From NCBI RefSeq assembly GCF_013167455.1, contig NZ_CP038328.1: a stretch of 64,000 bases of DNA; one strand, written 5' to 3'. The stretch comes from Escherichia coli O157:H7 (lineage in GTDB: Bacteria; Pseudomonadota; Gammaproteobacteria; Enterobacterales; Enterobacteriaceae). The position numbers and the translations under genes are program-made. Every line of letters starts with the position of its first letter. Position 1 is the first letter of the stretch. Under the pieces are notes generated by a model. It saw only the letters and a list, made by a program, of their open reading frames with translations. It was not told the origin of the DNA and ran no database searches. Below, piece after piece: positions 27,454-42,773 of the stretch.

Positions 27454-27790
27454 CATGACTCCTTGCTCATCGCATGAAGACTCCGAGAGTGAACCCCGTT
27501 AGAAAGGGTCACACGCATGCCCCAATACAAAATTATTTGCTCGCCTCTATCGTTGCCATTTCATCAAAAGAGGAAAAGACAATGATAAAAAAGTTACAAA
27601 TATGTTAATGAATAAACCAAATTGATCCCGTAATTATATTACGCCGCAAAATCCTTACAATAAACAGGTTTTTATTGAGCAAATTTGCATTTTTCGACAG
27701 TGATCAATTTATAGCGAAATTGTCACGATCTCACCAATTTGATCTACGACAATTTATCGTGTTTTGCAGATTTTTTTCAAGAATTAAAAA

Positions 27791-27804
27791 TTGATTTATA
27801 TCAA
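27791..27804. promoter_or_regulatory. FNR-type site in the cydAB upstream regulatory region
   Basis: TTGATTTATATCAA is a perfect TTGAT-N4-ATCAA match, about 340 bp upstream of the cydA start in a long AT-rich region. Confidence 0.55.
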
Positions 27805-28258
27805 AACCAACCAAATATGTTAATTATGTATAAACCATAGATCATTGGTGATTTTATTGTTAATTTATTGTGAAATATTTATGCAACACAATTATTACAA
27901 TGAAAAGGTATAGATAAAAAACCAGTATTTTATTTAACAGAACCGCCTTATCCACTTTTTATAATACCAATTGATTAGAGTAGCCAATTTGTTGCTATTT
28001 TACATAACATATTTTTATCAAAGTTAATTGATTGTTGCCTTTATGAGCACCGACCGTAAGCCCGTTATGTTATTGTTTCATTAGTAATAATCACTTAAAT
28101 GTATCGATGAAACAGGTATGACTTACCGGGAGTGATTGTTTCTGAGTGAACAGAGGCCACTTTCGCCTGATAAATGAAAAATGAGCGATTTTTGCAAGTT
28201 AGTTTTTCTATAGCCGAGTACGCTCAGCGCCTCGCTTGATTACAATGAGGTTGCTGCT

Positions 28259-29203
28259 ATGAGTCCTGATAATATCGGTTCGGCTGTCAATCGCTTCTCA
28301 GGTTGGCCATCTAATGATTCTCTAAAAACAGATAAAGAATCAATGACATCACCCGTGACTGTGCAGGTAATAAAGATGATTGCCGCCATCCTTGACCCAC
28401 ATCGGATAGTCGTTGGAATTGATACACTTTATACAACGCAGCGCGAAACATTTACCTCAGAGAGTCAACAGCTCATTGAATCAGCATTGCAAACACTTCA
28501 TGTGATGAATTTAAATAATCTGGAAACAAATCGCGATGAAGAAAGTCACTATCTGGCTTTTGAATATAACGTTGACACCTCTGACAGAATAACCGTTTCT
28601 GCTTATAATGAAAAAAAACCTGGCTGCTATGGCCAATGTCTTGTAATACAGGATGACGAAACAGACTTATTTAACCTGATAAAAATTAAAATTTTCGAAG
28701 CCAGGCATAATTATGTCGCTCAATTGATGAGCGATCCGGAATTTATGTTCAAATTCAGTTATAGCGCTCAACAAAATAGATTAGAACCTCATCTTCTGGT
28801 TCCCGCTTATTTCCCTCTAAAAACAAACGAACCGGTTACGCAAGAGGATGTACTGTTACTTTATCGTTTCTTTAAAATGAATGATGATTTTAATAAATTA
28901 ACATCAGATGAATACATGAGTATCCTGACACCTCTGATGAAGTGTGAGCGTAGCGTCCACGACAACAACAGGTATGTGACGGGCAAAGATACCCTTCTTC
29001 TGGACTATCCTCCTTCTGGTAACCAGATACATTTCCATGTTTTCCCTGACGAATCAGCAACACTAGTCCTTTATTTTTCAAACAATGACATTGAATGTTT
29101 CGTCTTTGAAAGAGATATTCCGAGCCAGTATCGCTTTTTCAAAATGTTTACCAATCTGGCACTGGTTATAGATCAGTTAACCGAAGCCAATAAAATACTT
29201 TAA
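28259..29203 (+). CDS. hypothetical protein, 314 aa, no recognisable family (AT-rich gene)
   Basis: 945-nt ORF in markedly AT-rich DNA where chance ORFs of this length are unlikely; no motif recognised by eye; start could alternatively be the internal ATG near 28345. Confidence 0.6.
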   Translation: MSPDNIGSAVNRFSGWPSNDSLKTDKESMTSPVTVQVIKMIAAILDPHRIVVGIDTLYTTQRETFTSESQQLIESALQTLHVMNLNNLETNRDEESHYLAFEYNVDTSDRITVSAYNEKKPGCYGQCLVIQDDETDLFNLIKIKIFEARHNYVAQLMSDPEFMFKFSYSAQQNRLEPHLLVPAYFPLKTNEPVTQEDVLLLYRFFKMNDDFNKLTSDEYMSILTPLMKCERSVHDNNRYVTGKDTLLLDYPPSGNQIHFHVFPDESATLVLYFSNNDIECFVFERDIPSQYRFFKMFTNLALVIDQLTEANKIL

Positions 29204-29284
29204 TTTTCTATATATCCCCTATGGCAAATATTGCTAAACAATGCCTGGGGATTAATTTTTATTACTCACGGAAAGATTTAAATA

Positions 29285-29707
29285 ATGATACCATCTCAGA
29301 TCTCTTTCAATACCCTTCCAGTCAATGCAACATACGCTTCAGAGACAACAGTTGACACACAAAAATTCTCTGACATCCTCTACTCAGCGGGGTGTTCCCT
29401 AAAGGATATGGCTTATCTGAGCAGATGTCTGGCATCAATACACCCGACTCTCGCCAAAAACATTTATGAAACAGAAAATCTCAGCGATCAAAAATTACTA
29501 CATATTGATTGCCGTAGTACAAATGAAATCAAGATAAATATCTTTTTTGGTCAACAACGAGAAGGATTAATTGAAATTAATTCTGACACAGTCATTTTTT
29601 CGATATTGTCTTCATTAATTGACTCCGCCATTTCTAAATTTCAACACCAAATCCCCGTTAACGGTTCAGTTAATCGTGAACTATTGTATGAGGATTATAC
29701 TGATTAA
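29285..29707 (+). CDS. hypothetical protein, 140 aa, no recognisable family (AT-rich gene)
   Basis: 423-nt ORF 81 bp downstream of the 314-aa ORF, same strand and similar composition; no signal peptide or motif recognised. Confidence 0.55.
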   Translation: MIPSQISFNTLPVNATYASETTVDTQKFSDILYSAGCSLKDMAYLSRCLASIHPTLAKNIYETENLSDQKLLHIDCRSTNEIKINIFFGQQREGLIEINSDTVIFSILSSLIDSAISKFQHQIPVNGSVNRELLYEDYTD

Positions 29708-30254
29708 ATCCACCCTGTCGCGAAAAATGGCCTGCGTTATTGCCAGACGTAATAAAACCTTTGATTAACGTTACTCATACTGATAGCACCTTCATGTACC
29801 TCTCTTTTTTACGAAAAATTAAAAGAGCTAACTAAGGTCATAATTCGCATGAATCATTAACCATTTGTTATTTTCAACATTATTTTTACATTAAGCAGAG
29901 ATGAATTGCAGTGAAATTCGACTTAAATCTTATGAAATGCATTTACTCATGGCTAAAACCACGTCACAAAAATGCAAATTAGAAGTAGATCACAATTATC
30001 TCAATACATTAAATCAAGTTAATTTTAAAAATTTAACACTCATGACATTAGTTGACATAACACACTGAATTAACATGGAAATTTAAAAACACACTTCAAA
30101 CAATCATTTCCCGAAAGACATTTTGAAAATAGATCAATTGCAACATTACGGTCAGATAAAGACACTCCTGTGATATTAAACCTGTGCCGTTATGAACGGC
30201 CATAAATACGACGTGTGTAACTTATTTTACTCTCTGTCTTACAAAGGATTACCC

Positions 30255-30704
30255 ATGAAGAAAGCAACACTTGTGATTGGCGTTATTGGCGCGGACTGCC
30301 ATGCAGTAGGCAATAAAGTTCTGGACCGCGTTTTTAGCAACCACGACTTCAGAGTCATTAATCTGGGCGTAATGGTCAGCCAGGACGAATATATTGATGC
30401 TGCCATTGAAACTGGCGCTGACGCGATTGTCGTCTCCTCTATCTATGGGCATGGCGATATCGACTGTCTGGGCATGCGCGAACGCTGCATCGAGCGTGGA
30501 CTGGGGGACATCCTGCTCTATGTGGGCGGTAACCTGGTGGTCGGAAAACATGACTTCGCTGACGTGGAAACCAAATTCAAAGAGATGGGATTTGATCGCG
30601 TCTTTGCCCCAAGTCATGACTTAGAAGATGTTTGCCAGCTGATGGCCCACGATATCAACCAACGTCATGACGTTGATACTCGTATTCTTGAAGAGGCTAT
30701 CTGA
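30255..30704 (+). CDS. mamA: glutamate mutase (methylaspartate mutase) S subunit, B12-binding
   Basis: ORF track 30192..30704; ATG at 30255 gives 149 aa [22 protein letters not shown] with the cobalamin-binding DxHxxG motif (DCHAVG); closely resembles clostridial GlmS/MutS. Confidence 0.88.
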
Positions 30705-32092
30705 TGCAAATCGTCTCTGTCGATATTGGATCGACGTGGACCAAAGCAGCCCTCTTTACCCGGGAGGGGGACGCGTTAACGTTGGTTAACCACGTACTGA
30801 CCCCAACCACCACCCATCATCTGGCGAAGGGGTTTTTCTCCAGCCTGAACCAGGTGTTAAACGTAGATAATGCCCTCCCCCTGTTAAACAGCGGTGAGGT
30901 TGCATTGAAGTATTCCTCCTCTGCCAAAGGTGGGCTGGCGGTTGCCGCAATGGGATTGGTGCCTTCTATCACCCTGGAAACCGCGAAAGTAACCGCTCAC
31001 TCTGCGGGTGCTAAAATTGCGCAATATTACGCCTACAAGCTGAACCGCCGTGATATCCAGGCACTGGAAGAAACGCAGCCCGATATTCTCTTGTTCACCG
31101 GCGGCACCGACGGCGGAGAAGAAAGCTACGGACTGAATAACGCCCGTGTGCTGGCAGAATCCAAACTCGACTGCGCCATTATTTATGCCGGAAACCGGGA
31201 TATTCAGGACGAGGTGCAGGAGATCCTCGGGCATAAAGACCTGACCATTGTCGACAACGTTCTGCCCGATCTTGACCATCCGAACCCTGTAGCTGCACGC
31301 CAGGCTATTTGCGACATATTCCTTAAACGCATCGTTAAAGGGAAAGGGCTGGATGTCATTGTTGATAAAACAGGCGAAGAACCAATGCCGACACCATGGA
31401 CGGTCTTTGAACTGGTCAAGGCAATCAGTAACGTCGATCACAGCTGGAAAGAGTTCATGCTGATCGACATGGGCGGCGCAACCACCGATGTTTATTCCGC
31501 CTGTGCCAACACGCTCTCGCCCGACACCGTTTTACACGGCGTACCGGAACCCTTCGTAAAACGGACGGTGGAAGGCGATCTGGGAATGCGCGTCTCGGCA
31601 GTGGTGGTTGGTGAAAGTGCGAAAGAGTTAGTCAATGTGAATTTTGCTCAGCAACCCGCACAGCTGGACGCTTTTTATCATTACCTCCGTCATCTAGTCG
31701 CTCATCCCGACTACTTACCCGCAAATGCAGAAGAGAAATATTTCGATACCGTCCTGGCCGGACTGTGTGTGGGTTATGCCACCGAAAGACATGCGGGCAC
31801 CAAAAAAGAGGTCTGCACCTGCGTCGGCAATGTCGATTTACAGATGGGACGTGACCTGACAACCGTGCGTAAAGTCGTCGGATCCGGCGGATGGCTCTCG
31901 CGTGCCAGTCAGTTCGATATGCATCACTGGTTGAAATACCGCGAGTTAAACGACGACGGTAAACGCATTCTCTTACCGACCGAATTTGAATATTACCGCG
32001 ATTCCCGGGGGCTATTACCACTGCTGGCAAACGTCGCCAGAGTCGATCCGCTGGCCGCCGCGCGCACCAGTATTCAATGCTTAACCCTATAA
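30704..32092 (+). CDS. glmL: glutamate mutase-associated protein GlmL/MutL (actin-like ATPase fold; proposed chaperone/reactivase)
   Basis: 462 aa ORF whose start overlaps the S-subunit stop by 1 nt; lies between S and E subunits as in clostridial operons. Confidence 0.7.
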   Translation: MQIVSVDIGSTWTKAALFTREGDALTLVNHVLTPTTTHHLAKGFFSSLNQVLNVDNALPLLNSGEVALKYSSSAKGGLAVAAMGLVPSITLETAKVTAHSAGAKIAQYYAYKLNRRDIQALEETQPDILLFTGGTDGGEESYGLNNARVLAESKLDCAIIYAGNRDIQDEVQEILGHKDLTIVDNVLPDLDHPNPVAARQAICDIFLKRIVKGKGLDVIVDKTGEEPMPTPWTVFELVKAISNVDHSWKEFMLIDMGGATTDVYSACANTLSPDTVLHGVPEPFVKRTVEGDLGMRVSAVVVGESAKELVNVNFAQQPAQLDAFYHYLRHLVAHPDYLPANAEEKYFDTVLAGLCVGYATERHAGTKKEVCTCVGNVDLQMGRDLTTVRKVVGSGGWLSRASQFDMHHWLKYRELNDDGKRILLPTEFEYYRDSRGLLPLLANVARVDPLAAARTSIQCLTL

Positions 32093-32110
32093 CAATTAAG
32101 GCTGCAATCA

Positions 32111-33556
32111 ATGGAACTTCGAAATAAGAAATTAACCCATGACGAATTCATGACCGAGCGGCAACAGGTACTGAAAACCTGGGAAACCGGCAAGGATGTT
32201 GAAAACTTTGAAGATGGCGTTAAATACCAACAAACCATCCCTGAGCATAAACGTTTCTCTCTTGCGCTGCTGAAAGCAGACAAGGAAGGTAAAACCCTTA
32301 GCCAACCGCGCGCAGGTGTGGCGCTGATGGACGAACACATCGAACTGCTGAAAACACTACAAGAAGAGTGCGATCTGCTGCCAAGCACCATCGATGCATA
32401 TACCCGTCTGAATCGGTACGAAGAAGCGGCTGTAGGGATTAAAAAATCCATCGAAGCCGGAACCTCTAAACTGAACGGTTTACCGGTAGTTAACCATGGT
32501 GTCGCAGCTTGCCGTCGCCTCACCGAAACCCTGCAAAAACCGCTACAGATCCGCCACGGCACGCCAGATGCGCGTCTGCTGGCTGAAATCTCAATGGCCA
32601 GCGGCTTTACCAGTTATGAAGGCGGTGGCATTTCCTACAACATTCCGTATGCCAAACGCGTAACGCTGGAAAAATCGATCCGCGACTGGCAGTACTGCGA
32701 CCGTTTAATGGGGATGTATGAAGAACACGGGATCCGCATCAACCGCGAACCGTTTGGCCCACTAACGGGTACGCTGATCCCGCCGTTTATCTCGCACTCT
32801 ATCGCGATAATCGAAGGCTTGCTGGCGCTGGAACAGGGTGTGAAATCTATCACCGTTGGTTATGGCCAGGTCGGCAGCCTGACGCAGGATGTTGCGGCGA
32901 TCCAGTCTCTGCGTGAACTTGCACACGAATATTTTCAGAGCTATGGCTATACCGACTATGAATTGAGTACCGTGTTTCACCAGTGGATGGGCGGCTTTCC
33001 GGAAGACGAATCGAAAGCGTTCGCTATTATCTCCTGGGGCGCAGCCGTCGCGGGGATGTCTGGTGCCACCAAAGTCATCACCAAAAGTCCGCACGAAGCC
33101 TGGGGTATCCCGACTGCCGCTGCCAACATTCAGGGGCTGAAAGCCTCCCGCCAAATGCTCAACATGGTCAATGAGCAGAAATTCCCGCCGTGCCCTGCGG
33201 TTGAACTGGAAATTGAACTGATTAAGAGCGAGGTTCGCGCGGTACTGAATAAAGTGTTCGAACTGGGTAATGGTGATATTGCGCGCGGAACGGTGCTGGC
33301 ATTTGAAGCGGGCGTACTGGATGTGCCGTTTGCGCCAGCCGCCTGCAACGCGGGCAAAATTCTTCCGGTCCGTGACAACACCGGCGCGATACGCGTACTG
33401 GAAGCCGGAGCCGTTCCATTGCCAAAAGATATTCTCGACCTCCACCACGATTACGTTGCGGAACGCGCACGCTGTGAAGGACGCCAACCGACATTCCAGA
33501 TGGTTGTAGATGACATCAATGCTGTATCCCACAGTAAATTAATAGGAAGACCATAA
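32111..33556 (+). CDS. glmE: glutamate mutase (methylaspartate mutase) E subunit, catalytic
   Basis: 481 aa ORF MELRNKKLTHDEF...QPRAGVALMDEHIELLK...LPSTIDAYTRLNRYEE, closely resembling clostridial GlmE. Confidence 0.9.
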   Translation: MELRNKKLTHDEFMTERQQVLKTWETGKDVENFEDGVKYQQTIPEHKRFSLALLKADKEGKTLSQPRAGVALMDEHIELLKTLQEECDLLPSTIDAYTRLNRYEEAAVGIKKSIEAGTSKLNGLPVVNHGVAACRRLTETLQKPLQIRHGTPDARLLAEISMASGFTSYEGGGISYNIPYAKRVTLEKSIRDWQYCDRLMGMYEEHGIRINREPFGPLTGTLIPPFISHSIAIIEGLLALEQGVKSITVGYGQVGSLTQDVAAIQSLRELAHEYFQSYGYTDYELSTVFHQWMGGFPEDESKAFAIISWGAAVAGMSGATKVITKSPHEAWGIPTAAANIQGLKASRQMLNMVNEQKFPPCPAVELEIELIKSEVRAVLNKVFELGNGDIARGTVLAFEAGVLDVPFAPAACNAGKILPVRDNTGAIRVLEAGAVPLPKDILDLHHDYVAERARCEGRQPTFQMVVDDINAVSHSKLIGRP

Positions 33557-34797
33557 TGAAAATAAAACAGGCTCTGTTCACCGCTGGCTACTCCTCATTC
33601 TATTTCGATGACCAGCAGGCGATAAAAAACGGAGCGGGTCATGACGGCTTTTTTTATACCGGGGAGCCAGTAACACAGGGGTTTAACGCCGTACGTCAGG
33701 CCGGGGAGTGCGTATCGGTACAGTTGATTCTGGAAAACGGCGCGGTCGCCGTAGGTGACTGTACTGCCGTACAGTATTCCGGGGCAGGCGGTCGCGATCC
33801 ACTGTTCCTCGCAGAGCACTTTATTCCGTTCCTCAACGACCATATCAAGCCATTACTGGTAGGCCGCGATGTGGATGCTTTCCTGCCGAATGCCCGTTTC
33901 TTCGACAAATTGCGTATTGACGGCAACTTGCTGCATACCGCCGTGCGCTACGGATTATCACAGGCGCTGCTTGATGCTACCGCGCTGGCAACCGGCCGTC
34001 TGAAAACTGAAGTGGTCTGTGATGAATGGCAGTTGCCACGCGTGGCGGAATCCATTCCATTATTTGGTCAGAGCGGCGACGATCGATATATCGCCGTCGA
34101 TAAGATGATCCTTAAAGGCATCGACGTGCTGCCCCATGCGCTGATTAATAACGTCGAAGAGAAGCTGGGCTTTAAAGGTGAAAAACTGCGCGAATATGTC
34201 CGCTGGTTGTCGGATCGCATTCTAAGCAAGCGCACCAGCGCACGCTACCACCCTACCCTGCACATCGATGTATACGGCACTATCGGTCTGATCTTCGATA
34301 TGGATCCGCTTCGCTGTGCGCAATACATCGCCAGCCTGGAAAAAGAAGCGCAAGGCCTGCCGCTCTACATCGAAGGGCCGGTCGATGCCGGTAACAAGCC
34401 CGATCAAATTCGCCTGCTGACCGCGATTACCAAAGAGCTGACGCGCCTCGGTTCCGGCGTGAAAATTGTGGCCGATGAATGGTGTAACACCTACCAGGAT
34501 ATTGTTGATTTCACTGATGCTGCCAGTTGTCACATGGTGCAAATCAAAACCCCGGATCTGGGCAGTATTCACAACATCGTCGATGCGGTTCTTTACTGCA
34601 ACAGCCACAGCATGGAAGCGTACCAGGGCGGCACCTGCAATGAAACTGATGTCAGTGCCCGCACCTGTGTCCACGTCGCCCTTGCCGCTCGCCCCATGCG
34701 TATGCTGGTAAAACCAGGGATGGGCTTTGACGAAGGCCTCGATATCGTCTTCAACGAAATGAATCGTACTATCGCGCTGTTGCAGGCTAAGGATTAA
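33556..34797 (+). CDS. 3-methylaspartate ammonia-lyase (beta-methylaspartase)
   Basis: 413 aa ORF MKIKQALFTAGYSSFYFDDQQAIKNGAGHDGFFYTGE...VQYSGAGGRDPLFLAE, enolase-superfamily MAL; start overlaps the glmE stop by 1 nt. Confidence 0.9.
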   Translation: MKIKQALFTAGYSSFYFDDQQAIKNGAGHDGFFYTGEPVTQGFNAVRQAGECVSVQLILENGAVAVGDCTAVQYSGAGGRDPLFLAEHFIPFLNDHIKPLLVGRDVDAFLPNARFFDKLRIDGNLLHTAVRYGLSQALLDATALATGRLKTEVVCDEWQLPRVAESIPLFGQSGDDRYIAVDKMILKGIDVLPHALINNVEEKLGFKGEKLREYVRWLSDRILSKRTSARYHPTLHIDVYGTIGLIFDMDPLRCAQYIASLEKEAQGLPLYIEGPVDAGNKPDQIRLLTAITKELTRLGSGVKIVADEWCNTYQDIVDFTDAASCHMVQIKTPDLGSIHNIVDAVLYCNSHSMEAYQGGTCNETDVSARTCVHVALAARPMRMLVKPGMGFDEGLDIVFNEMNRTIALLQAKD

Positions 34798-34800
34798 CAA

Positions 34801-36171
34801 ATGGCTCGTTCTTTTAAAGTCTTATCGCCAACGGCAATCCTCGGGTATGGATTCCCGGAAGAGAGCTTCCGCAAAGCGATGGCAGAATCGCCCGATCTGA
34901 TCGCCGTTGATGCAGGCTCTTCCGATCCAGGCCCCCACTACCTCGGGGCAGGCAAACCGTTTACCGATCGCGCAGGGGTCAAGCGCGATCTGCGCTATAT
35001 GATCACCGCAGGCGTGCAAAATAATATACCGGTGGTGATCGGAACGGCTGGCGGTTCTGGTGCCGCACCACACCTGGAGTGGTGCCGAGAAATAATTCAT
35101 GAGATTGCCCGGGAAGAGCACCTCTCGTTCTCGATGGCGTTGATCCCGGCAGACGTTGACAAAGCCATCGTCCACCAGGCGCTGGATAACGGCAAAATCA
35201 CGGCGCTGGATTTTGTCCCGCCGTTAACCCACGACGCGATTGACGAAAGTACGTATATCGTCGCGCAAATGGGCATCGAACCCTTCCAGCGGGCGCTGAA
35301 AGAACGCGCGCAAGTGGTGCTGGGCGGGCGCGCTTACGACCCGGCCTGCTTTGCTGCGCTCCCGATCATGCAAGGCTTTGATGAAGGTCTGGCGCTGCAT
35401 TGTGGGAAAATCCTTGAATGCGCGGCAATCGCCGCAACGCCCGGCTCAGGCTCTGACTGTGCGATGGGCATCATTGATGACAACGGCTTTACGCTGAAAA
35501 CATTTAATCCGAAGCGTAAATTTACCGAAACGTCAGCAGCTGCACACACACTGTATGAGAAATCCGATCCCTACTTCCTGCCAGGACCTGGCGGCGTGTT
35601 GAACCTGAAAGGCTGCACATTTAAAGCAGTAAATGACGGCGAAGTCTACGTCAGCGGTTCTAAGCATGAAGAAACGCCGTATGCCCTGAAACTGGAAGGT
35701 GCACGACGGGTGGGCTTCCGCTGTCTGACCATCGCCGGAACGCGCGACCCGATTATGATCGCCGGGATCGATAAAATCATCGATGAAGTCAAAACCAGCG
35801 TTTCGCGTAACCTGTCGCTCGACGATGACAGCATTCGCATCAATTTCCACCTGTACGGCAAAAACGGGGTGATGGGAGACCATGAACCGATGCAAACTGC
35901 CGGGCATGAGCTGGGGATTGTCCTTGATGTAGTTGCACCGACCCAGGAAATTGCCAACAGCGTTTGCTCGCTGGTGCGCTCTACCATGCTGCACTACGGC
36001 TATGAAAACCGCATCGCTACCGCAGGTAATCTGGCGTTCCCGTTCTCCCCTTCTGATATCCAGGGCGGGCCGGTATACGAATTTTCCATATATCACCTGA
36101 TTGAAGCCAACGACGCTCTGCGTTTTGATTTCCATATTGAACAGGTGACGCCAGAAGGAGTTCAGGCATGA
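34801..36171 (+). CDS. uncharacterised conserved protein, 456 aa (possibly DUF1446/AtuA-like; assignment from memory, unverified)
   Basis: ORF begins 3 nt after the MAL stop; Gly-rich segment GTAGGSGAAPH; no characterised catalytic motif recognised. Confidence 0.6.
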   Translation: MARSFKVLSPTAILGYGFPEESFRKAMAESPDLIAVDAGSSDPGPHYLGAGKPFTDRAGVKRDLRYMITAGVQNNIPVVIGTAGGSGAAPHLEWCREIIHEIAREEHLSFSMALIPADVDKAIVHQALDNGKITALDFVPPLTHDAIDESTYIVAQMGIEPFQRALKERAQVVLGGRAYDPACFAALPIMQGFDEGLALHCGKILECAAIAATPGSGSDCAMGIIDDNGFTLKTFNPKRKFTETSAAAHTLYEKSDPYFLPGPGGVLNLKGCTFKAVNDGEVYVSGSKHEETPYALKLEGARRVGFRCLTIAGTRDPIMIAGIDKIIDEVKTSVSRNLSLDDDSIRINFHLYGKNGVMGDHEPMQTAGHELGIVLDVVAPTQEIANSVCSLVRSTMLHYGYENRIATAGNLAFPFSPSDIQGGPVYEFSIYHLIEANDALRFDFHIEQVTPEGVQA

Positions 36172-36485
36172 AACAGTCAATTGTCTCACTGGCGCAAGTC
36201 ATTCGTTCGAAAAATGCCGGACCTTACGAACTGGTTTTAGATATTTTATTTAAAACGAAAGAAAACTATGAGCGAGTTAAATCATCAGGGCAATTAACCC
36301 CAGAACTGATTGCACGCTTATATCATGTTGAACCTGACTTTATTCATCGTATTGTCTGGTTTGATCCTTCTAACGCAGTAAAAATCGTCATGCCACGAGA
36401 TATTATCTCCGGGAATGTAGGTGACAATGATGTCTATGGTGCACAGCAACATGCACCTTTATTAAATATGAGTTTCGATTTGTAA
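36168..36485 (+). CDS. uncharacterised small protein, 105 aa (possibly DUF4387-like; unverified)
   Basis: ORF overlapping the preceding gene by 4 nt (ATGA), indicating translational coupling. Confidence 0.55.
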   Translation: MKQSIVSLAQVIRSKNAGPYELVLDILFKTKENYERVKSSGQLTPELIARLYHVEPDFIHRIVWFDPSNAVKIVMPRDIISGNVGDNDVYGAQQHAPLLNMSFDL

Positions 36486-36568
36486 AAATCCGAATACTTT
36501 TAGCCAACTGACATCCCGTCACTTATTGCAGTTCAACACTTCAGCTATTTGTAAGGTTGTAATAGCAG

Positions 36569-36600
36569 GTAGATGCCTGAATCTCTATTCAGGCATCTAC
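36569..36600 (+). terminator. Perfect 14-bp inverted repeat (terminator or operator candidate)
   Basis: GTAGATGCCTGAAT-CTCT-ATTCAGGCATCTAC between the 105-aa ORF and the transporter gene; only a weak T-run follows. Confidence 0.45.
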
Positions 36601-36645
36601 TTCTCCTGATTCTGATTTATCGCCGTGCACCTGATGGAGGAAAAA

Positions 36646-37926
36646 ATGAAGAAAATAAGTTTAACCACGATGATTCTTTTGGCGCTGGTACTTGGAATGA
36701 TTATCGGCGTAGTGCTCAATAACACTGCTTCACCGGAAACCGCAAAACTCTATGCGCAAGAAATATCGATATTCACGACGATTTTCTTACGACTGATAAA
36801 AATGATTATCGCTCCGTTAGTGGTCTCTACCCTGGTGGTAGGTATTGCTAAAATGGGCGATGCCAAAGCCCTTGGTCGTATTTTTTCTAAAACACTCTTT
36901 TTATTTATTTGCGCCTCATTGCTGTCAATTGCCTTAGGCTTGATAACGGTAAATTTCTTCATGCCAGGTACAGGAATTAATTTTGTTGCACACGGTGCCG
37001 AAACCACCGGAGTGGTCGCGGCAGAACCCTTTACGCTAAAAGTATTTATTTCGCATGCTTTCCCCACCAGCATTGTCGATGCCATGGCGCACAATGAAAT
37101 TTTGCAAATCGTGGTGTTCTCAATTTTCCTCGGCTGTAGCCTGACGGCGATTGGCGAGAAAGGCAGCGCCATCGTTCACGCCTTAGATTCGCTGGCACAT
37201 GCCATGTTAAAGCTCACTGGCTACGTCATGCTCTTCGCTCCCCTGACCGTATTCGCTGCTATTTCAGCATTGATTGCTGAACGAGGACTGGCAGTTATGG
37301 TGAGCGCCGGGATCTTTATGGGTGAATTTTATTTCACCATGTTATTACTTTGGGTACTGCTTATCGGTCTGGCCATCGTTTATGTCGGCCCCTGCATCAG
37401 ACGCCTGACCCGCGCCCTTTCGGAACCCGCCCTGCTGGCATTTACCACATCCAGTTCTGAAGCGGCTTTTCCGGGAACGCTTGAAAAACTGGAGCAATTT
37501 GGCGTTTCCCCCAAAATTGCCAGCTTTGTCTTACCCATTGGCTACTCATTTAATCTCGTTGGATCAATGGCCTACTGCTCCTTCGCCACAGTTTTCATCG
37601 CCCAGGCCTGCAATATCCATTTATCCATCGGTGAGCAAATCACCATGCTGTTGATCCTGATGTTGACCTCGAAAGGAATGGCTGGCGTACCACGCGCCTC
37701 AATGGTGGTTATCGCCGCCACGCTCAACCAGTTCAATATTCCGGAAGCGGGGCTGATCTTGCTGATGGGCGTTGATCCGTTCCTTGATATGGGGCGTTCC
37801 GCGACAAACGTCATGAGCAACGCAATGGGCGCTGCGATGGTGAGTCGGTGGGAAGGCGAACATTTCGGCGAGGGCTGTCGGGGTAAAGCATTAAAACCCA
37901 ATGAATCGAACGTTGCTCTGCCCTGA
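36646..37926 (+). CDS. dicarboxylate/amino-acid:cation symporter (GltP/DctA family), probable glutamate or C4/C5-dicarboxylate uptake
   Basis: ORF track 36625..37926; ATG at 36646 is preceded by GGAGG; multi-TM protein MKKISLTTMILLALVLGMIIGVVLNN. Confidence 0.75.
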   Translation: MKKISLTTMILLALVLGMIIGVVLNNTASPETAKLYAQEISIFTTIFLRLIKMIIAPLVVSTLVVGIAKMGDAKALGRIFSKTLFLFICASLLSIALGLITVNFFMPGTGINFVAHGAETTGVVAAEPFTLKVFISHAFPTSIVDAMAHNEILQIVVFSIFLGCSLTAIGEKGSAIVHALDSLAHAMLKLTGYVMLFAPLTVFAAISALIAERGLAVMVSAGIFMGEFYFTMLLLWVLLIGLAIVYVGPCIRRLTRALSEPALLAFTTSSSEAAFPGTLEKLEQFGVSPKIASFVLPIGYSFNLVGSMAYCSFATVFIAQACNIHLSIGEQITMLLILMLTSKGMAGVPRASMVVIAATLNQFNIPEAGLILLMGVDPFLDMGRSATNVMSNAMGAAMVSRWEGEHFGEGCRGKALKPNESNVALP

Positions 37927-38033
37927 GGGGGATCTTAAGCAATCAGAAGCCAATGACTACGCATTTTTATAAGCCGGATCATGAAGTTAGACGGCAATTA
38001 AGTAACACTAACGTTTAAGGTGAAAAGTGAAAT

Positions 38034-39686
38034 ATGTCCAAACCATTTATCTGGCAAGAACCGTTTCTACAAAATAAAGACGGTACAGAATATACATTAA
38101 TTAGCGATCAACATATTACAGTAACGGAATTAGACGGCGAAGAAGTGATAAAAATCGCTCCTGAAGCATTAACGCTGCTTGCCCGGCAGGCATTTTATGA
38201 AGCCTCTTTTTTCTTACGTTCCGCTCATTTGCAACAGGTCGCCAGCATTCTTAACGATCAGCAGGCCAGCAGTAATGATAAATACGTTGCGTTGCAGTTA
38301 TTACGTAATGCTGAAGTCTCAGCAAAAGGGGTATTACCCAACTGTCAGGATACCGGCACCGCAACTATTGTTGCCAGTAAAGGGCAACAGATATGGACCG
38401 GAGGTAACGACGCCGAAGCCTTAAGTAAAGGCATTTACAGTACTTTCCAGGAAAATAATCTGCGCTTTTCACAAAATGCGCCGCTGGATATGTATACCGA
38501 AGTCAATACGCAAACCAATCTCCCGGCGCAGATTGATATCAGCGCTGTCGCTGGTGATGAGTACCATTTTCTCTGTGTTAATAAAGGGGGCGGCTCCGCC
38601 AATAAAGCCGCGCTTTATCAGGAAACCAAATCCTTATTGCAACCAGAAAAACTGACCGCATTTTTAATCGAAAAAATGAAATCGCTGGGCACCGCTGCCT
38701 GCCCGCCTTACCACATCGCCTTTGTCGTCGGAGGGCTTTCAGCCGATCAAACCTTAAAAATTGCCAAGCTGGCCTCAACGAAATATTACGACAATTTGCC
38801 CACCAGCGGAAACGAGCAGGGACAAGCATTCCGTGATATTGAGCTGGAAAAAGTGTTGCTCGAGGCCAGTCAGCAATTTGGTATTGGTGCGCAATTTGGG
38901 GGTAAATATTTCGCTCATGATATTCGCGTCATTCGTCTGCCGCGTCACGGTGGCTCTTGCCCGATAGCTATGGCGCTCTCCTGTTCTGCCGATCGCAATA
39001 TCAAAGCAAAAATTAACAAACACGGTATCTGGCTGGAAAAACTCGAACACAATCCGGGGCAATATATTCCAGCCTCACTGCGGGAAGAAAATCACGCGCA
39101 ACATGTACAACTGGATCTAAACCGTCCGTTGCGTGACGTGATGCAGGATCTCGCCAGATTACCAGTAGGCACCCGCGTGTCGTTAAGTGGTCCCATCGTA
39201 GTGGCGCGCGATATCGCCCACGCCAAAATAAAAGCGCGGCTGGATAGCGGCGAACCGATGCCGGAGTACCTGAAGCATCATATTGTCTATTACGCTGGCC
39301 CGGCGAAAACACCGGAGAACATGGCCTGCGGTTCACTGGGTCCAACCACGGGCGGTCGAATGGACGGTTATATCGATACCTTCCAGGCGGCTGGCGGCAG
39401 TCTAGTGATGTTATCGAAAGGTAACCGCAGCCAGCAGGTCACCGATGCCTGTCACAAACATGGCGGCTTCAATCTGGGAAGTATTGGCGGTGCAGCTGCG
39501 TTACTGGCGCAAGAATATGTCAAAAGTCTGCGTTGCCTGGAATACCCGGAGCTGGGTATGGAAGCGGTGTGGATGATGGAAGTGGAAAATCTGCCCGCAT
39601 TCATCCTGGTAGATGATAAAGGCAATAATTTCTTTAGTCAGTTTGAGCAGCAACACCGCTGCGCCAGTTGCCCTGCGGGACATTAA
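38034..39686 (+). CDS. fumD: class I (Fe-S) fumarate hydratase paralogue, FumD-type mesaconase/fumarase
   Basis: 550 aa ORF closely similar to FumA/FumB over its length ([38 protein letters not shown]), located in the glutamate mutase cluster. Confidence 0.85.
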
Positions 39687-39695
39687 GGAAAATGA

Positions 39696-40298
39696 ATGGA
39701 AGCGCGAATTTCAACTGAACGGCATGTGCAGCGCCAACAGAAATTGAAGGAACAGGTCGATACGCGCGTCGCGGCGGCGATAGAGAAAAAAGGGATCTTG
39801 ATTGTTTTCACCGGCAACGGCAAAGGGAAATCCACTGCCGCGTTTGGTACTGTGACGCGCGCGGTGGGTCATGGCAAAACGGTGGGGGTTGCGCAGTACA
39901 TCAAGGGGCAATGGGACAACGGCGAATACAACCTTCTCCAGCCGCTGGGGGTTGAGTTTCATATTATGGGAACCGGTTTTACCTGGGAGACACAGAACCG
40001 GCAAGCGGATATCGACGCGGCGAAAGAGGTCTGGTCGGAAAGCAAACGGATGCTGGCTGACAAGCGTTACGACTTAGTGGTGCTTGATGAGCTGACCTAT
40101 ATGCTGGCTTACCATTATCTGGATACCGAAGAAGTGATCGCTTCTCTGCAAAACCGCCCGGCACAACAAAGTGTCATTGTCACCGGACGCGGTTGCCACA
40201 GTCAGATATTAAAAATGGCAGATACGGTCAGCGAAATCCGCCCCGTCAAACATGCTTTTGATAACGGCATTCAGGCCCAGCCGGGTATCGACTGGTAA
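39696..40298 (+). CDS. cob(I)alamin adenosyltransferase, BtuR/CobA family
   Basis: 200 aa ORF with P-loop FTGNGKGKSTAAFG and strong resemblance to E. coli BtuR. Confidence 0.85.
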   Translation: MEARISTERHVQRQQKLKEQVDTRVAAAIEKKGILIVFTGNGKGKSTAAFGTVTRAVGHGKTVGVAQYIKGQWDNGEYNLLQPLGVEFHIMGTGFTWETQNRQADIDAAKEVWSESKRMLADKRYDLVVLDELTYMLAYHYLDTEEVIASLQNRPAQQSVIVTGRGCHSQILKMADTVSEIRPVKHAFDNGIQAQPGIDW

Positions 40299-40301
40299 TA
40301 A

Positions 40302-40334
40302 CTGCGCCTGGCATCCCGCCAGGCGCAGGTTTTA
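40302..40334. terminator. Bidirectional hairpin between convergent adenosyltransferase and LysR genes
   Basis: CTGCGCCTGG-loop-CCAGGCGCAG followed by GTTTTA; overlaps the LysR stop codon. Confidence 0.5.
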
Positions 40335-41237
40335 CATCTCCTGCGGTACGACCGATTTCGCCAGCAACCATTCACGAAATTGCTGCAAGTGCGGTGAGTC
40401 AGACTTCTCTTCCTGCCACGTCATAATAAAACGATTACCGGTACGAATAGGCACATCACAGGGAATCACCATATCGCCACTATCCAAATCATGTTGAATA
40501 GCGAAACGTGGTAACAGCGCCACGCCGAGATTAGAGCGCACGGCGGCAATCAGCATTGAAAGCAAATCGAAACGTGGTCCGTTGTTGACCAGCGGACTGC
40601 TAACGCCAGATAAAGCAAACCACTCTTCCCAGCCAGTAATACGGGTGCTTTGATGCAGAAGTGGTAACTCAGTAAGCAGTTCTGCCACTGACAGTTTTTG
40701 ATCGGACATTGCAAGCAAACTGCCGCTGCATACCGGCAAAATCTCCTCTTCAAAGAGATATTCTACTTCCGCCCAGGGCGCGCAAAAATTTTCGCGCATA
40801 ATGACAGCATCGTACTCCCGATTAAGAAAATCGCCGTTATTAGCTAAAGAATGAATATTAACAATAATATCGGGATGTAACTTTGTGAATTCATGTAAAT
40901 TTGGGATTAACCAGTGGGTACTAAAAGTAGGATTAACGGCAAGTTCAATAACCTGAACCGTAGGCTGCCAGGTCATAATGGTATTGGTATCGCGTTCCAG
41001 CTTATTTAATGTTTCTTTTACTATCCCCAGGTAATACTTCCCTGTATCATTAAGAAAAATGCGTTTTTTAGAGTGTGAAAATAACGGAGTACGTAAAAAT
41101 TCCTCCAGCGCACTTACTTGTCTGAATACTGCACTTTGGGTTAACGCTAACTCCTCTGCCGCTCTGGTATAACTTTCATGACGTGCGACGACCTCAAAAG
41201 TCACCAGCAGTTCCGTTTTAGGTATTTTCCCTCGCAT
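40332..41237 (-). CDS. LysR-family transcriptional regulator
   Basis: 301 aa ORF with N-terminal HTH (LLVTFEVVARHESYTRAAEELALTQSAVFRQVSALE) and C-terminal substrate-binding domain. Confidence 0.85.
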   Translation of the reverse strand: MRGKIPKTELLVTFEVVARHESYTRAAEELALTQSAVFRQVSALEEFLRTPLFSHSKKRIFLNDTGKYYLGIVKETLNKLERDTNTIMTWQPTVQVIELAVNPTFSTHWLIPNLHEFTKLHPDIIVNIHSLANNGDFLNREYDAVIMRENFCAPWAEVEYLFEEEILPVCSGSLLAMSDQKLSVAELLTELPLLHQSTRITGWEEWFALSGVSSPLVNNGPRFDLLSMLIAAVRSNLGVALLPRFAIQHDLDSGDMVIPCDVPIRTGNRFIMTWQEEKSDSPHLQQFREWLLAKSVVPQEM

Positions 41238-41802
41238 AATGCCGTCCCTTAAAAATAGTTTAAACCATCAAAAATACATTACTTATTACGAAGTAATGGT
41301 AACCAAAGCAGCAATAAATAATTTATAAGAATCATGATTGACATTTATAAACCAGTAAGGCTGGCGTGACAAATATCTTAATCAGATAATAATAATCCGA
41401 AAAGCACAGCGCCTTTCGAATTATCCGGAATCACATTAAGTGAAAATTATTAAATTGATATCATTTATCATATCTGTGGATATTATGATAAACAATCAAC
41501 AAAGATTTTATTTTTGATTTATAGCATATCCCTCTAAGAATTTTTGCGATGCTGCAATATCCGGGGTAAAGACCCGATCCTGGCTGACAAATGGCACGAC
41601 TTGACGAAAAGCGGTGAACATCGCTTTTGTTGATTTACTTAACGCTACGGTCAAACGCTGGGAAGCCAGTGCATCAGGTAACGATTCGAAATTCGCCGTC
41701 GTTCTTATTCGTGGCTTGCGGTCGGTTGCGGCAATCCACAGTGGCTGTGGTCATGCAGTCAAGCCTGCAGTCAGATTTCGACCGTGGTTAACCGTTTAAG
41801 GC

Positions 41803-41903
41803 ATAAAAAAGGCCATCATACGATGGCCAACCATGTCGAAACCGACAGCCCTTCGCCATTCCTGTAGAGGGAAGCGGCGAGGGCTATTTCTTATTACAGA
41901 TAT
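41803..41903 (-). ncRNA. sdhX: SdhX (RybD) sRNA region, sucD 3'UTR ending at an intrinsic terminator
   Basis: 3'UTR of sucD on the minus strand ends in GGCCATCGTATGATGGCC plus TTTTTT and contains ACAGGAATGGCGAAGGGCTGTCGGTTTCGACATGG, which I recall as the SdhX region; exact 5' end not determined. Confidence 0.55.
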
Positions 41904-42773
41904 TTATTTCAGAACAGTTTTCAGTGCTTCACCGATATCCGCCAGGCTGCGAACGGTTTTCACGCCTGCGGCTTCCAGAGCAGCGAATTTCTCATCCGCA
42001 GTCCCTTTCCCACCGGCAATGATGGCACCCGCGTGGCCCATACGTTTGCCTTTCGGCGCAGTCACACCAGCGATGTAACCCACAACTGGCTTGGTAACGT
42101 GCTCTTTGATGTACGCAGCTGCTTCTTCTTCAGCGCTACCGCCGATCTCACCGATCATCACGATCGCTTCGGTCTGCGGATCTTTTTCGAACATTTCGAG
42201 AATGTCGATAAAGTTAGAGCCAGGGATCGGGTCACCGCCGATACCGACACAGGTCGACTGACCGAAACCGTAATCCGTGGTCTGTTTAACCGCTTCATAG
42301 GTCAGTGTACCGGAACGGGAAACGATACCCACTTTACCCGGTTTGTGAATGTGACCAGGCTGAATACCGATTTTGCATTCACCCGGAGTGATAACGCCTG
42401 GGCAGTTCGGGCCGATCATACGAACGCCTGCTTCATCCAGCTTCACTTTCACGGTCAGCATATCCAGCGTCGGGATGCCTTCAGTGATGGTGATAATCAG
42501 TTTGATGCCTGCGTCGATGGCTTCCAGAATGGAGTCTTTGCAGAACGGTGCTGGTACGTAGATAACAGAAGCGGTAGCGCCAGTAGCAGCAACAGCTTCA
42601 CGCACGGTGTTGAACACCGGCAGGCCGAGGTGGGTAGTACCGCCTTTACCTGGGGTTACGCCGCCAACCATTTTAGTGCCGTATGCAATGGCCTGTTCTG
42701 AGTGGAAAGTCCCCTGGCTACCGGTAAAGCCCTGGCAGATAACCTTGGTGTTTTTATCAATTAAAATGGACAT
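41904..42773 (-). CDS. sucD: succinyl-CoA synthetase alpha subunit
   Basis: 289 aa [48 protein letters not shown]. Confidence 0.92.

Follow-up and report, generated by a model that had tools for sequence, protein, structure and literature searches.

The methylaspartate-pathway glutamate cluster between cydA and sucD of Escherichia coli O157:H7: proposed mechanism and origin

What lies between cydA and sucD in E. coli O157:H7, how far does the pathway encoded there run, and how did the locus acquire its present form? In the window analyzed here (the whole 64,000-nucleotide stretch of O157:H7 DNA), comparison with other alleles by blastn delimits a variable, accessory segment at 27,830/28,095–41,800. 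On the left, as compared with loci L003, L004 and L005, homology to K-12 stops at 27829, while that to TPR-type alleles reaches 28094; on the right, it restarts at 41801. An earlier note, made from the sequence alone, had placed an accessory B12-dependent methylaspartate-route cluster at 28170–41600, which is the right locus, drawn slightly too narrowly. All of the ORFs it named are present, intact and on the strands given; two others, within 28,259–29,707, had been left out (Table 1). As it also held, K-12 lacks the cluster and has mngB-mngA-mngR at the same site; mngRAB is not in the window. The segment is the already published B12-dependent glutamate-breakdown cluster, which O157:H7 shares with roughly one in five other E. 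coli. Among 5,426 complete genomes of the species, 1,117 are carriers, with at least 80% of the segment present; over 14.5 kb, the match to E. coli CDC#03-98 and NZRM3614 is 100%. The primers published for fumD (Kronen & Berg 2015, PMC4682846) match exactly at 38034–38055 and 39669–39686, the ends of the ORF, in line with the note's statement that a FumD cluster had been reported for O157:H7. We are thus left with considerable confidence that this is the O157:H7 form of the known enterobacterial methylaspartate-pathway glutamate cluster, with the mechanism and origin proposed below.

Table 1. Features of the cydA–sucD interval and its flanks (positions in the window)
Feature	Position	Strand	Description
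cydA	25885-27456	-	left flanking gene
left junction zone	27830..28258	.	AT-rich, GC about 0.35-0.40 (composition profile; blastn)
ORF314	28259-29203	+	314 aa; low GC; annotated hypothetical; Escherichia-only orphan
ORF140	29285-29707	+	140 aa; low GC; second Escherichia-restricted orphan
spacer upstream of glmS	29708..30254	+	547 bp, AT-rich, GC 0.35-0.37
glmS	30255-30704	+	glutamate (methylaspartate) mutase sigma subunit, B12-binding; NF002612 253 bits (cut-off 110)
glmL (mutL)	30704-32092	+	glutamate mutase accessory/reactivating protein; NF040745 510.7 bits (cut-off 475); TIGR01319 898 bits
glmE	32111-33556	+	glutamate mutase epsilon (catalytic) subunit; TIGR01503 866 bits (cut-off 390)
mal	33556-34797	+	3-methylaspartate ammonia-lyase; TIGR01502 542.7 bits (cut-off 286)
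cmlA	34801-36171	+	putative citramalate lyase large subunit, CoA/ACP-independent; AtuA/DUF1446 family; Pfam AtuA
cmlB	36168-36485	+	putative citramalate lyase small subunit; DUF4387; 4-bp overlap with cmlA
symporter	36646-37926	+	DAACS dicarboxylate/amino acid:cation symporter; best models DctA subfamily 312.7 bits, GltP equivalog 300.1 bits
fumD	38034-39686	+	class I Fe-S fumarase, mesaconate-preferring (mesaconase); NF011921 1287 bits (cut-off 1060)
cobO	39696-40298	+	ATP:cob(I)alamin adenosyltransferase, makes AdoCbl; NF004637 295.6 bits (cut-off 185); TIGR00708 246.6 (cut-off 167.75)
hairpin	40302..40328	.	GC-rich, 11 pairs, 9 G-C; between convergent cobO and LysR genes
LysR-family (GcvA-like) regulator	40332-41237	-	NF008352 220.9 bits, below cut-off 288
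hutH-like (HAL/PAL/TAL) ammonia-lyase remnants	41508..41701	-	3' end and one internal piece
RtcB-family gene remnants	41705..41801	+	3' part; two pieces, 57 + 40 bp
sucD (sdh-suc operon) terminator hairpin	41811..41828	-	right junction; homology to all other alleles restarts at 41801
sucD	41904-42773	-	right flanking gene

The similarity to glutamate mutase and methylaspartase recognized in the earlier note is borne out. GlmS, GlmL, GlmE and MAL, together with the FumD-type fumarase and CobA/CobO, exceed their NCBIfam equivalog cut-offs, and RefSeq annotation is consistent with these identities. Solved homologues match over their full length: GlmS aligns with 1i9c_A at 171 bits, its DxHxxG motif in register as D14/H16/G19; GlmE aligns with 6h9e_B and 1cb7_B at about 630 bits; and MAL is 93.5% identical to the Citrobacter amalonaticus enzyme of structure 1kko, retaining the catalytic and Mg2+ residues H194, D238, E273, D307, Q329 and K331. 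FumD scores under the cut-off of the FumA model, and kinetically it prefers mesaconate 2-3-fold (PMC4682846). Upstream of glmS, the spacer presumably contains the operon's promoter and control region; no cobalamin riboswitch was found in it, nor any Rfam match at E<=1. At the far end, the hairpin between cobO and the LysR gene is likely a bidirectional terminator. The LysR gene occupies the same end of the cluster across genera, and its product is presumed to act as the operon switch. Like the symporter, this regulator scores below all equivalog cut-offs.

The two coupled ORFs downstream of mal had been called uncharacterised, and the pathway had been taken to end at (S)-citramalate. Neither view holds up well. 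CmlA aligns from 1-456 to 1-456 with the chain deposited as "Citramalate lyase, subunit A (cmlA)" (9erq_A/9evf; 970 bits, 92.1% identity), and CmlB matches "Citramalate lyase, subunit B (cmlB)" (9erq_B) over its full length (193.5 bits, 84.6% identity). These identities imply that the pathway probably continues to pyruvate and acetate. The Raoultella planticola cmlAB pair has been used as a lyase that converts citramalate directly to pyruvate and acetate, a use supported in vivo by mesaconate-dependent growth and by labelling (bioRxiv 10.64898/2026.01.16.699985). From the names given by the PDB depositors and this one preprint on the Raoultella enzyme, E. coli CmlAB is predicted to be a citramalate lyase. 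Gene order points the same way: glmS-glmL-glmE-mal-cmlA-cmlB recurs in every spanning locus but one, from Enterobacterales to Aromatoleum, Telmatospirillum, Desulfotomaculum and Dictyoglomaceae, the sole exception being a Bacillota MAG in which mal lies downstream of cmlAB. Kronen and Berg raised, as one suggestion in 2015, that (S)-citramalate is itself the end-point, to be secreted or used otherwise (PMC4682846); the AtuA/DUF4387 pair would then do something else. Their O157:H7 extracts had no detectable citramalate lyase activity, but they came from cells that did not express the cluster (PMC4682846). Given the 92% and 85% identity of the two subunits to deposited lyase chains, the mesaconate-dependent acetyl-CoA formation conferred by the Raoultella orthologue, and the adjacency of cmlAB to mal across phyla, we think it very improbable that the route stops at citramalate.

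The cluster would then operate as follows. Glutamate, the presumed substrate of the DAACS symporter, would be imported and converted to (2S,3S)-3-methylaspartate by the AdoCbl-dependent mutase GlmS/GlmE; GlmL would keep the mutase active, and CobO would adenosylate imported cobalamin. To our knowledge, E. coli does not synthesize B12 de novo. Methylaspartase would release ammonia from 3-methylaspartate to leave mesaconate, and FumD would hydrate mesaconate to (S)-citramalate, a step demonstrated biochemically for this gene product (PMC4682846). The two-subunit CmlAB, whose chains share 92% and 85% identity with those of the solved Raoultella-type enzyme, would cleave citramalate directly, so that the net, redox-neutral conversion would be glutamate to NH4+, acetate and pyruvate. 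The pyruvate might yield one ATP by way of pyruvate formate-lyase, phosphotransacetylase and acetate kinase. All steps of the pathway are reversible except the lyase.

This established reversibility also allows for another substrate. Some external C5-dicarboxylate, be it mesaconate, citramalate or methylaspartate, might enter through the symporter, with the mutase secondary or running in reverse; FumD and CmlAB would by themselves suffice for mesaconate use. Kronen and Berg named the symporter GltP (PMC4682846); the DctA model, for C4-dicarboxylates, gives it a slightly higher score than the GltP model does, and it reaches the cut-off of neither. On the other hand, the B12 mutase, its chaperone and the adenosyltransferase, which are needed for glutamate only, are retained by most species found to carry the cluster, and the additions seen at the locus, hut genes in some E. 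coli and glutaminase in Klebsiella, produce glutamate. We therefore regard a C5-dicarboxylate as quite unlikely to be the true substrate, and retain glutamate.

Does the cluster still function in O157:H7? The earlier note proposed growth assays on glutamate with and without cobalamin, but these had already been performed on O157:H7, with a negative result: neither cluster expression nor growth on glutamate was obtained under any condition, whether or not cobalamin was supplied in one of three forms, and MAL activity was undetectable (PMC4682846). Such silence might mark a decaying relic with no present function. The adjoining hut and rtcB genes are reduced to stumps in the same lineage, strain A34 has a deletion running from cmlA into the LysR gene, and the AT-rich region upstream may be of the kind typical for silenced DNA. 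Against this, none of the ten pathway and regulator ORFs is disrupted, either in the window or in the four full-length matches listed among the 1,117 carriers. Furthermore, dN/dS across the pathway genes is 0.00-0.23 between the two E. coli lineages compared, which implies purifying selection. A relic thus seems unlikely to us, and a maintained glutamate pathway the better account.

The right-hand spacer, between the LysR gene and sucD, bears on the origin of the locus. Window positions 41238-41645 correspond to 328-735 of locus L007 at 86%, and 41641-41701 to 1079-1139 of the same locus. Judged by the annotation of L007, the hutH-like fragments here are leftovers of a hut operon; about 144 E. 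coli genomes still have that operon whole at the same site, adjoining the cluster. The rtcB fragments match L002 and L006 at 93-95% (blastn) and RtcB residues 375-394 (tblastn), and other E. coli carriers of the cluster have an intact rtcB gene. Together, the remnants argue for an origin of the O157 form by deletion, with a larger arrangement of glm + hut + rtcB pared down to the present version and its gene stumps.

The earlier note instead read the locus as a replacement of mngRAB. In its strongest form this would be a recently acquired island that displaced mngRAB in one step, since mngRAB is missing here and present at the same place in K-12. Mobility genes are absent, as had been noted: no tRNA was found in 20000-50000, no integrase or transposase is annotated, and flanking repeats amount to short, chance-sized matches. 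Yet strain P31_YH1 has the full cluster beside rtcB-mngB-mngA-mngR, and a LysR-rtcB-mngB junction is common to about 145 E. coli genomes; the counts for the three configurations, 835 + 145 + 144, come close to the total of carriers. The remnants in the spacer mark successive deletions rather than one exchange. The cluster also lies between cydA and sucD in Klebsiella, Citrobacter, Salmonella enterica arizonae, Pseudescherichia and other Escherichia species, with cross-genus identities of 80-93% for the cluster proteins versus 92-96% for CydA and 94-95% for SucD. One-step replacement is accordingly the reading to which we give the least credence. The cluster is better seen as a probable long-standing occupant of a cydA–sucD intergenic hotspot of the Enterobacteriaceae, lost from K-12-type lineages.

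The two ORFs beside cydA probably form a module separate from the glutamate cluster. ORF314 has no match in Pfam, NCBIfam, PADLOC or PHROGs; the homologues found are of Escherichia type only, and one locus (L009) carries a 63% identical orthologue with the glm cluster absent. All source-named homologues of ORF140 come from E. coli, Shigella or E. albertii. dN/dS is 0.40-0.45 for ORF314 and 0.17 for ORF140, and the AF2 model of each has a pLDDT of 45.

How does the locus compare with known systems? The chemistry, glutamate to pyruvate plus acetate, is shared with the clostridial methylaspartate pathway (Clostridium tetanomorphum / C. cochlearium), which uses GlmS/GlmE or MutS/MutE, MutL, MAL, MesAB and a CitDEF-type citramalate lyase. 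E. coli GlmS, GlmE and MAL are homologous over their full length to the solved clostridial enzymes (171, about 630 and 500 bits). The later steps differ: a single-chain, FumA-like class I fumarase serves as mesaconase instead of the two-subunit MesAB, and the lyase would be CmlAB, of the AtuA/DUF4387 type, in place of an acyl-carrier-protein-dependent enzyme of the citrate-lyase type, no citDEF-like genes being found within the cluster. Unlike in the clostridial hosts, we know of no onward fermentation to butyrate in E. coli. The haloarchaeal methylaspartate cycle likewise makes mesaconate via glutamate mutase and methylaspartase, but then converts it to mesaconyl-CoA in acetate assimilation, whereas the E. 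coli cluster has a mesaconase and, by our proposal, a direct lyase, with no CoA-transferase.

Closest of all is the cluster of Kronen and Berg (PLoS One, PMC4682846), which is alike in gene content, order and type of organism and shows no sequence difference from the window. Both contain glmS, glmL (mutL), glmE, mal, the DUF1446 gene, the gltP-like gene, fumD, cobA/cobO and the LTTR gene; the DUF4387 gene, the two orphan ORFs by cydA and the hut and rtcB remnants are absent from the published description, in which neither the role of the DUF1446 gene nor what becomes of citramalate was settled. The CmlAB pair of R. planticola (PDB 9erq, 9evf; Berg laboratory) has subunits of the same lengths as the E. 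coli pair (456 and 105 aa), aligns with it end to end and occupies the same context, directly downstream of mal. The E. coli pair is known from its sequence, and its probable identity supplies the last enzyme missing from the published cluster.

Between cydA and sucD the ORF scan gives consecutive ORFs on the plus strand and then a single one on the minus strand, in agreement with the RefSeq genes (see table). The cluster that the earlier note had placed at 28170-41600 is therefore real, and it is absent from K-12, where mngB-mngA-mngR stands at this site. The measured junctions, at which homology to K-12 or to alleles with a TPR gene ends and restarts, show that range to be accurate to a few hundred bases. 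The right junction abuts the sucD terminator hairpin, at a base that in K-12 comes just after the stop codon of mngR, and therefore all alleles diverge exactly there. The chromosomes of E. coli CDC#03-98 and NZRM3614 match the stretch 27400-41950 at 100% identity, and O157:H7 strains TR01 and ATCC 43888 do so over its 2.1-kb left end; at least 80% of the stretch is carried by 1,117 of the 5,426 complete genomes of E. coli. Other alleles have a TPR protein gene at this hotspot, alone or with mngRAB, and share with the cluster-bearing type a short stretch that is not in K-12.

Features of the cydA-sucD segment and of related loci, with RefSeq annotation and NCBIfam equivalog scores against curated cut-offs
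Feature	Position	Annotation or description	NCBIfam model	Bits (cut-off)
cydA	25885-27456, minus			
Left end of K-12 homology	27829			
Stretch shared with TPR-gene alleles	27830-28094	left homology to these alleles ends at 28094		
ORF314	28259-29203	hypothetical protein		
ORF140	29285-29707	hypothetical protein		
glmS	start 30255	glmS	NF002612	253 (110)
glmL		glmL	NF040745	511 (475)
glmE		methylaspartate mutase subunit E	TIGR01503	866 (390)
mal		methylaspartate ammonia-lyase	TIGR01502	542.7 (286)
cmlA	34801-36171	acyclic terpene utilization AtuA family protein		
cmlB	36168-36485	DUF4387 domain-containing protein		
Symporter		dicarboxylate/amino acid:cation symporter		
fumD		class I fumarate hydratase (neither FumA nor FumB type)	NF011921	1287 (1060)
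fumD primer matches	38034-38055, 39669-39686	exact, at both ORF ends		
cobO		cobO (cobalamin adenosyltransferase)	TIGR00708	247 (168)
Strong hairpin	40302-40328	between convergent cobO and LysR genes		
LysR gene		LysR-type regulator		
Spacer, part 1	41238-41645	86% identical to type C LysR-hutH intergenic region and last ~138 bp of hutH-like gene		
hutH-like stumps	41508-41701	only ones left in O157-type		
Spacer, part 2	41641-41701	internal piece of type C hutH-like gene		
Spacer, part 3	41705-41761	internal rtcB piece		
Spacer, part 4	41762-41801	rtcB 3' end		
Restart of K-12 homology	41801			
Right junction	41801-41828			
sucD	41904-42773, minus			
TPR protein gene, FDAARGOS_1286	L004 2883-3998			
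TPR protein gene, EcPF7	L005 3097-4290			
hut module, 2021CK-00607	L007 598-8339, and L008			
ORF314 orthologue, Logan SRR11658232	L009 11786-12562			
Glutaminase A gene, Klebsiella grimontii	L014 13237-14238	between symporter and fumD		
AraC/PocR-like regulator gene, K. grimontii	L014 17986-18690	between LysR gene and sucD		
Split cmlA, Yersinia aldovae	L068 10001-11370	two tblastn matches		

Judged by equivalog models, the identities of the mutase, methylaspartase (MAL), FumD and CobO are directly supported at the level of sequence. Both glutamate mutase subunits are encoded. GlmS aligns over its full length with 1i9c_A (171 bits) and keeps the B12 cobalt-ligand motif DxHxxG as D14-x-H16-x-x-G19, an alignment that supports the annotated start over the longer ORF from 30192; GlmE aligns full-length with 6h9e and 1cb7 at about 630 bits. 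MAL matches the Citrobacter amalonaticus enzyme 1kko over its full length at 93.5% identity, as well as 1kcz from Clostridium tetanomorphum, and retains H194, D238, E273, D307, Q329 and K331, which from the MAL structure literature we take to be the catalytic and metal-binding residues. The fumarase, an extra one encoded in the same cluster as glm and mal, matches solved class I fumarases, and the FumA model gives it 924.5 bits, below the cut-off of 1105. The gene-specific parts of the published fumD cloning primers match both of its ends exactly; the enzyme so named prefers mesaconate, with a kcat/Km of 2 x 10^6 versus 7.5 x 10^5 M-1 s-1 for fumarate (PMC4682846). The accessory genes are all present (GlmL/MutL, cobalamin adenosyltransferase, a GltP-like transporter and an LTTR), with transporter and LTTR placed to family level only and matching no equivalog. 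The equivalog scores, solved homologues and primer matches thus bear out, in outline, the initial reading of a B12-dependent methylaspartate route.

That reading ended at (S)-citramalate, one step short, and left as uncharacterised coupled ORFs what can now be recognized as cmlA and cmlB. CmlA aligns at residues 1-456 with residues 1-456 of chain A of PDB 9erq/9evf (970 bits, 92.1% identity), and CmlB over residues 1-104 with chain B (193.5 bits, 84.6% identity); the names given to the two chains at deposition are 'Citramalate lyase, subunit A (cmlA)' and 'subunit B (cmlB)'. The large subunit is of the AtuA family and the small one is DUF4387, both with full-length homology to the solved enzyme, and their genes overlap by 4 bp. 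The Raoultella planticola orthologue is reported to convert (S)-citramalate to pyruvate and acetate without CoA or ACP, in a preprint that put the enzyme to use, and growth of an acetyl-CoA auxotroph was both mesaconate-dependent and plasmid-dependent, with label transfer (bioRxiv 10.64898/2026.01.16.699985). A citramalate lyase of the citrate-lyase type (CitDEF, ACP-dependent), as found in clostridial clusters, is not encoded in the cluster: neither citD, citE or citF homologues nor activation genes occur in 27400-41950 among the ORFs, in the RefSeq annotation or by NCBIfam.

Gene order points the same way. When all window proteins were mapped onto the 61 loci found in a scan of one genome per species, the order glmS-glmL-glmE-mal-cmlA-cmlB held in every locus spanning it except that of a Bacillota MAG (L063), where mal comes after cmlAB. 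It is seen in Klebsiella, Citrobacter, Salmonella enterica arizonae and diarizonae, Enterobacter, Lelliottia, Buttiauxella, Yersinia, Morganella, Hafnia, Budvicia, Aromatoleum/Azoarcus and Telmatospirillum, and also, at a CmlA identity of only 48-56%, in a Clostridiales MAG, Desulfotomaculum copahuensis and Dictyoglomaceae. This conservation lends independent support to CmlAB as a citramalate lyase. Taken together, the cmlAB matches and the gene order argue that the encoded pathway is complete, predicted to run from glutamate through 3-methylaspartate, mesaconate and (S)-citramalate to pyruvate and acetate.

Aside from this common core, several variants are evident. Escherichia whittamii and Escherichia sp. 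E1V33 carry the cluster without the symporter and cobO, with fumD about 290 bp past cmlB and the LysR gene about 170 bp past fumD by tblastn. Klebsiella grimontii has two additional genes, for a glutaminase A and an AraC/PocR-like regulator; the glutaminase in the Klebsiella version was noted by Kronen and Berg (PMC4682846). In Yersinia the fumD and LysR genes are found on the other strand, upstream of glmS, and in Yersinia aldovae cmlA is split into matches of 84% and 69% identity, which points to a frameshift, a mosaic or disruption of the gene. Contigs in two MAGs, labelled 'Citrobacter sp.' and 'Collinsella sp.', carry the cluster with proteins 92-100% identical to those of E. coli; one contig includes the Escherichia-only orphan ORFs, and both look like mis-binned E. 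coli contigs.

The symporter (313 bits with the DctA model and 300 bits with the GltP model, both under cut-off) would import glutamate, GlmL would reactivate the mutase, and the LysR-type protein, which is GcvA-like (221 bits, below cut-off), would control the operon. CobO would adenosylate imported cobalamin, since E. coli is not known to make the vitamin de novo. From glmS through cmlB the genes overlap or lie 3-18 bp apart, with gaps of 160 bp before the symporter, 107 bp before fumD and 9 bp before cobO; such distances point to between one and three transcription units. Upstream of glmS, the 547-bp leader has a GC content of about 0.35. Control of the operon by a cobalamin riboswitch finds no support in it, since neither such a riboswitch nor any other known RNA is matched in Rfam at E<=1 in 27000-42500.

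Whether the cluster is expressed has been addressed in O157:H7 ATCC 700728, in which no pathway expression was detectable; with and without hydroxo-, cyano- or adenosylcobalamin, this strain neither grew anaerobically on glutamate nor was stimulated by it, and it had no methylaspartase activity (PMC4682846). The growth test with and without cobalamin proposed in the earlier note had thus already been done, with a negative outcome. A literature search for Sakai/EDL933 expression data (ECs0751-0757, ECs0760-0767, Z0889-0894) gave nothing beyond the neighbouring suc and cyd genes or papers on other subjects. We infer that silencing of the AT-rich leader DNA is a plausible explanation of the absent laboratory expression. 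All pathway genes show dN/dS of 0.00-0.23 between two E. coli lineages, and this purifying selection argues against a dead relic.

Two orphan ORFs near cydA, ORF314 and ORF140, lie in DNA of 35-38% GC within the range first read as the cluster and had been overlooked. Both occur in four of four full-length, annotated E. coli carrier loci examined, and together they are found in 1,134 genomes, nearly the same number as the cluster; in other genera the cluster lacks them. An ORF314 orthologue of 63% identity adjoins cydA in an Escherichia-like contig that lacks the glm cluster, which makes ORF314 and ORF140 a separate module; there, the order is cydA, the orthologue, a 258-aa ORF without NCBIfam match, and sucD. 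Neither ORF could be assigned to a family by NCBIfam, PADLOC or PHROGs, nor ORF314 by Pfam, and no convincing relatives other than Escherichia-type ones appeared among 5.8 billion clustered sequences (both ORFs) or 1.84 billion representatives (ORF314), the single marginal match beyond them (P0063) being unconvincing. Every homologue with a named source falls within Escherichia and Shigella. Values of dN/dS (0.40-0.45 for ORF314, 0.17 for ORF140) indicate real but fast-evolving genes. AlphaFold models built from the shallow alignments were unusable (pLDDT 45.3 and 44.7), and a beta-beta-beta-alpha module common to the two ORFs was rejected by BLASTP (E = 3.1) and hhalign (probability 0.4%).

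Carriers differ in what follows the LysR gene. In type A, that of the window (835 genomes), a short spacer leads to sucD. In type B, exemplified by P31_YH1, rtcB-mngB-mngA-mngR-sucD follows (the LysR-rtcB-mngB junction occurs in 145 genomes), and in type C, exemplified by 2021CK-00607 (about 144 genomes), the order is hutH-like, hutG, hutI, hutD, permease, hutU, rtcB and sucD. The three sum to 1,124, near the 1,117-1,134 carriers. The type A spacer consists of hutH-like and rtcB remnants, so the O157 type is a deletion derivative of a glm, hut and rtcB arrangement. A one-step replacement of mngRAB, as the locus had first been interpreted, is rejected by these stumps and by the coexistence of cluster and mngRAB in type B. 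An integrative island or other mobile element had been discounted from the start, and that view stands, because the locus has no tRNA, integrase or transposase, its flanking repeats are short and chance-sized, and there is no att site of note. Strain A34 shows another form of decay, a deletion running from cmlA into the LysR gene.

The cydA-sucD site also houses the cluster in Klebsiella grimontii, K. michiganensis, many Citrobacter, Salmonella enterica arizonae, Pseudescherichia vulneris, E. whittamii and others, with cluster proteins 80-93% identical to those of the window, CydA 92-96% and SucD 94-95%. This fits long residence at the site with repeated loss; transfer of the cluster through the conserved flanks could also have taken place. 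In 2021CK-00607 the six-gene hut module adjoins the cluster's LysR gene, and since histidine breakdown yields glutamate, the hut and glm modules may form one catabolic route. The hut genes may once have fed glutamate into glm-mal-fumD-cmlAB under one LysR regulator, in an ancestral histidine-plus-glutamate fermentation island of which the O157 form would be the stump. A linked idea is that ORF314/ORF140 and the 547-bp AT-rich leader form a lineage-specific control module. We consider these two proposals rather unlikely; if true, such a module could explain why attempts to induce the pathway in laboratory cultures have failed.

The cluster would equip about a fifth of E. coli, O157:H7 among them, to convert glutamate in the gut to pyruvate, acetate and ammonia with vitamin B12 scavenged from the surroundings. 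What matters from here is regulation and ecology, namely the conditions of expression and a possible benefit for colonisation. The history of the cydA-sucD site, with its three configurations, hut and rtcB stumps and cross-genus position, is possibly useful for E. coli typing.

Finally, the cluster is already known. Kronen and Berg described it in PLoS One in 2015, in 26.5% of E. coli and 90.6% of O157:H7 strains (PMC4682846), and FumD of this very sequence has been characterised; with genes, pathway and last enzyme on record, discovery by genome scan adds little. What the present analysis contributes is modest, namely the cmlAB assignment here, the exact junctions, the three configurations, the stumps, the cross-genus position and the two orphan ORFs. 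For the 2015 study, what the DUF1446 gene does and what becomes of citramalate were still questions (PMC4682846); with cmlAB recognized by homology to the CmlAB structures, the gap at citramalate cleavage would now be closed.
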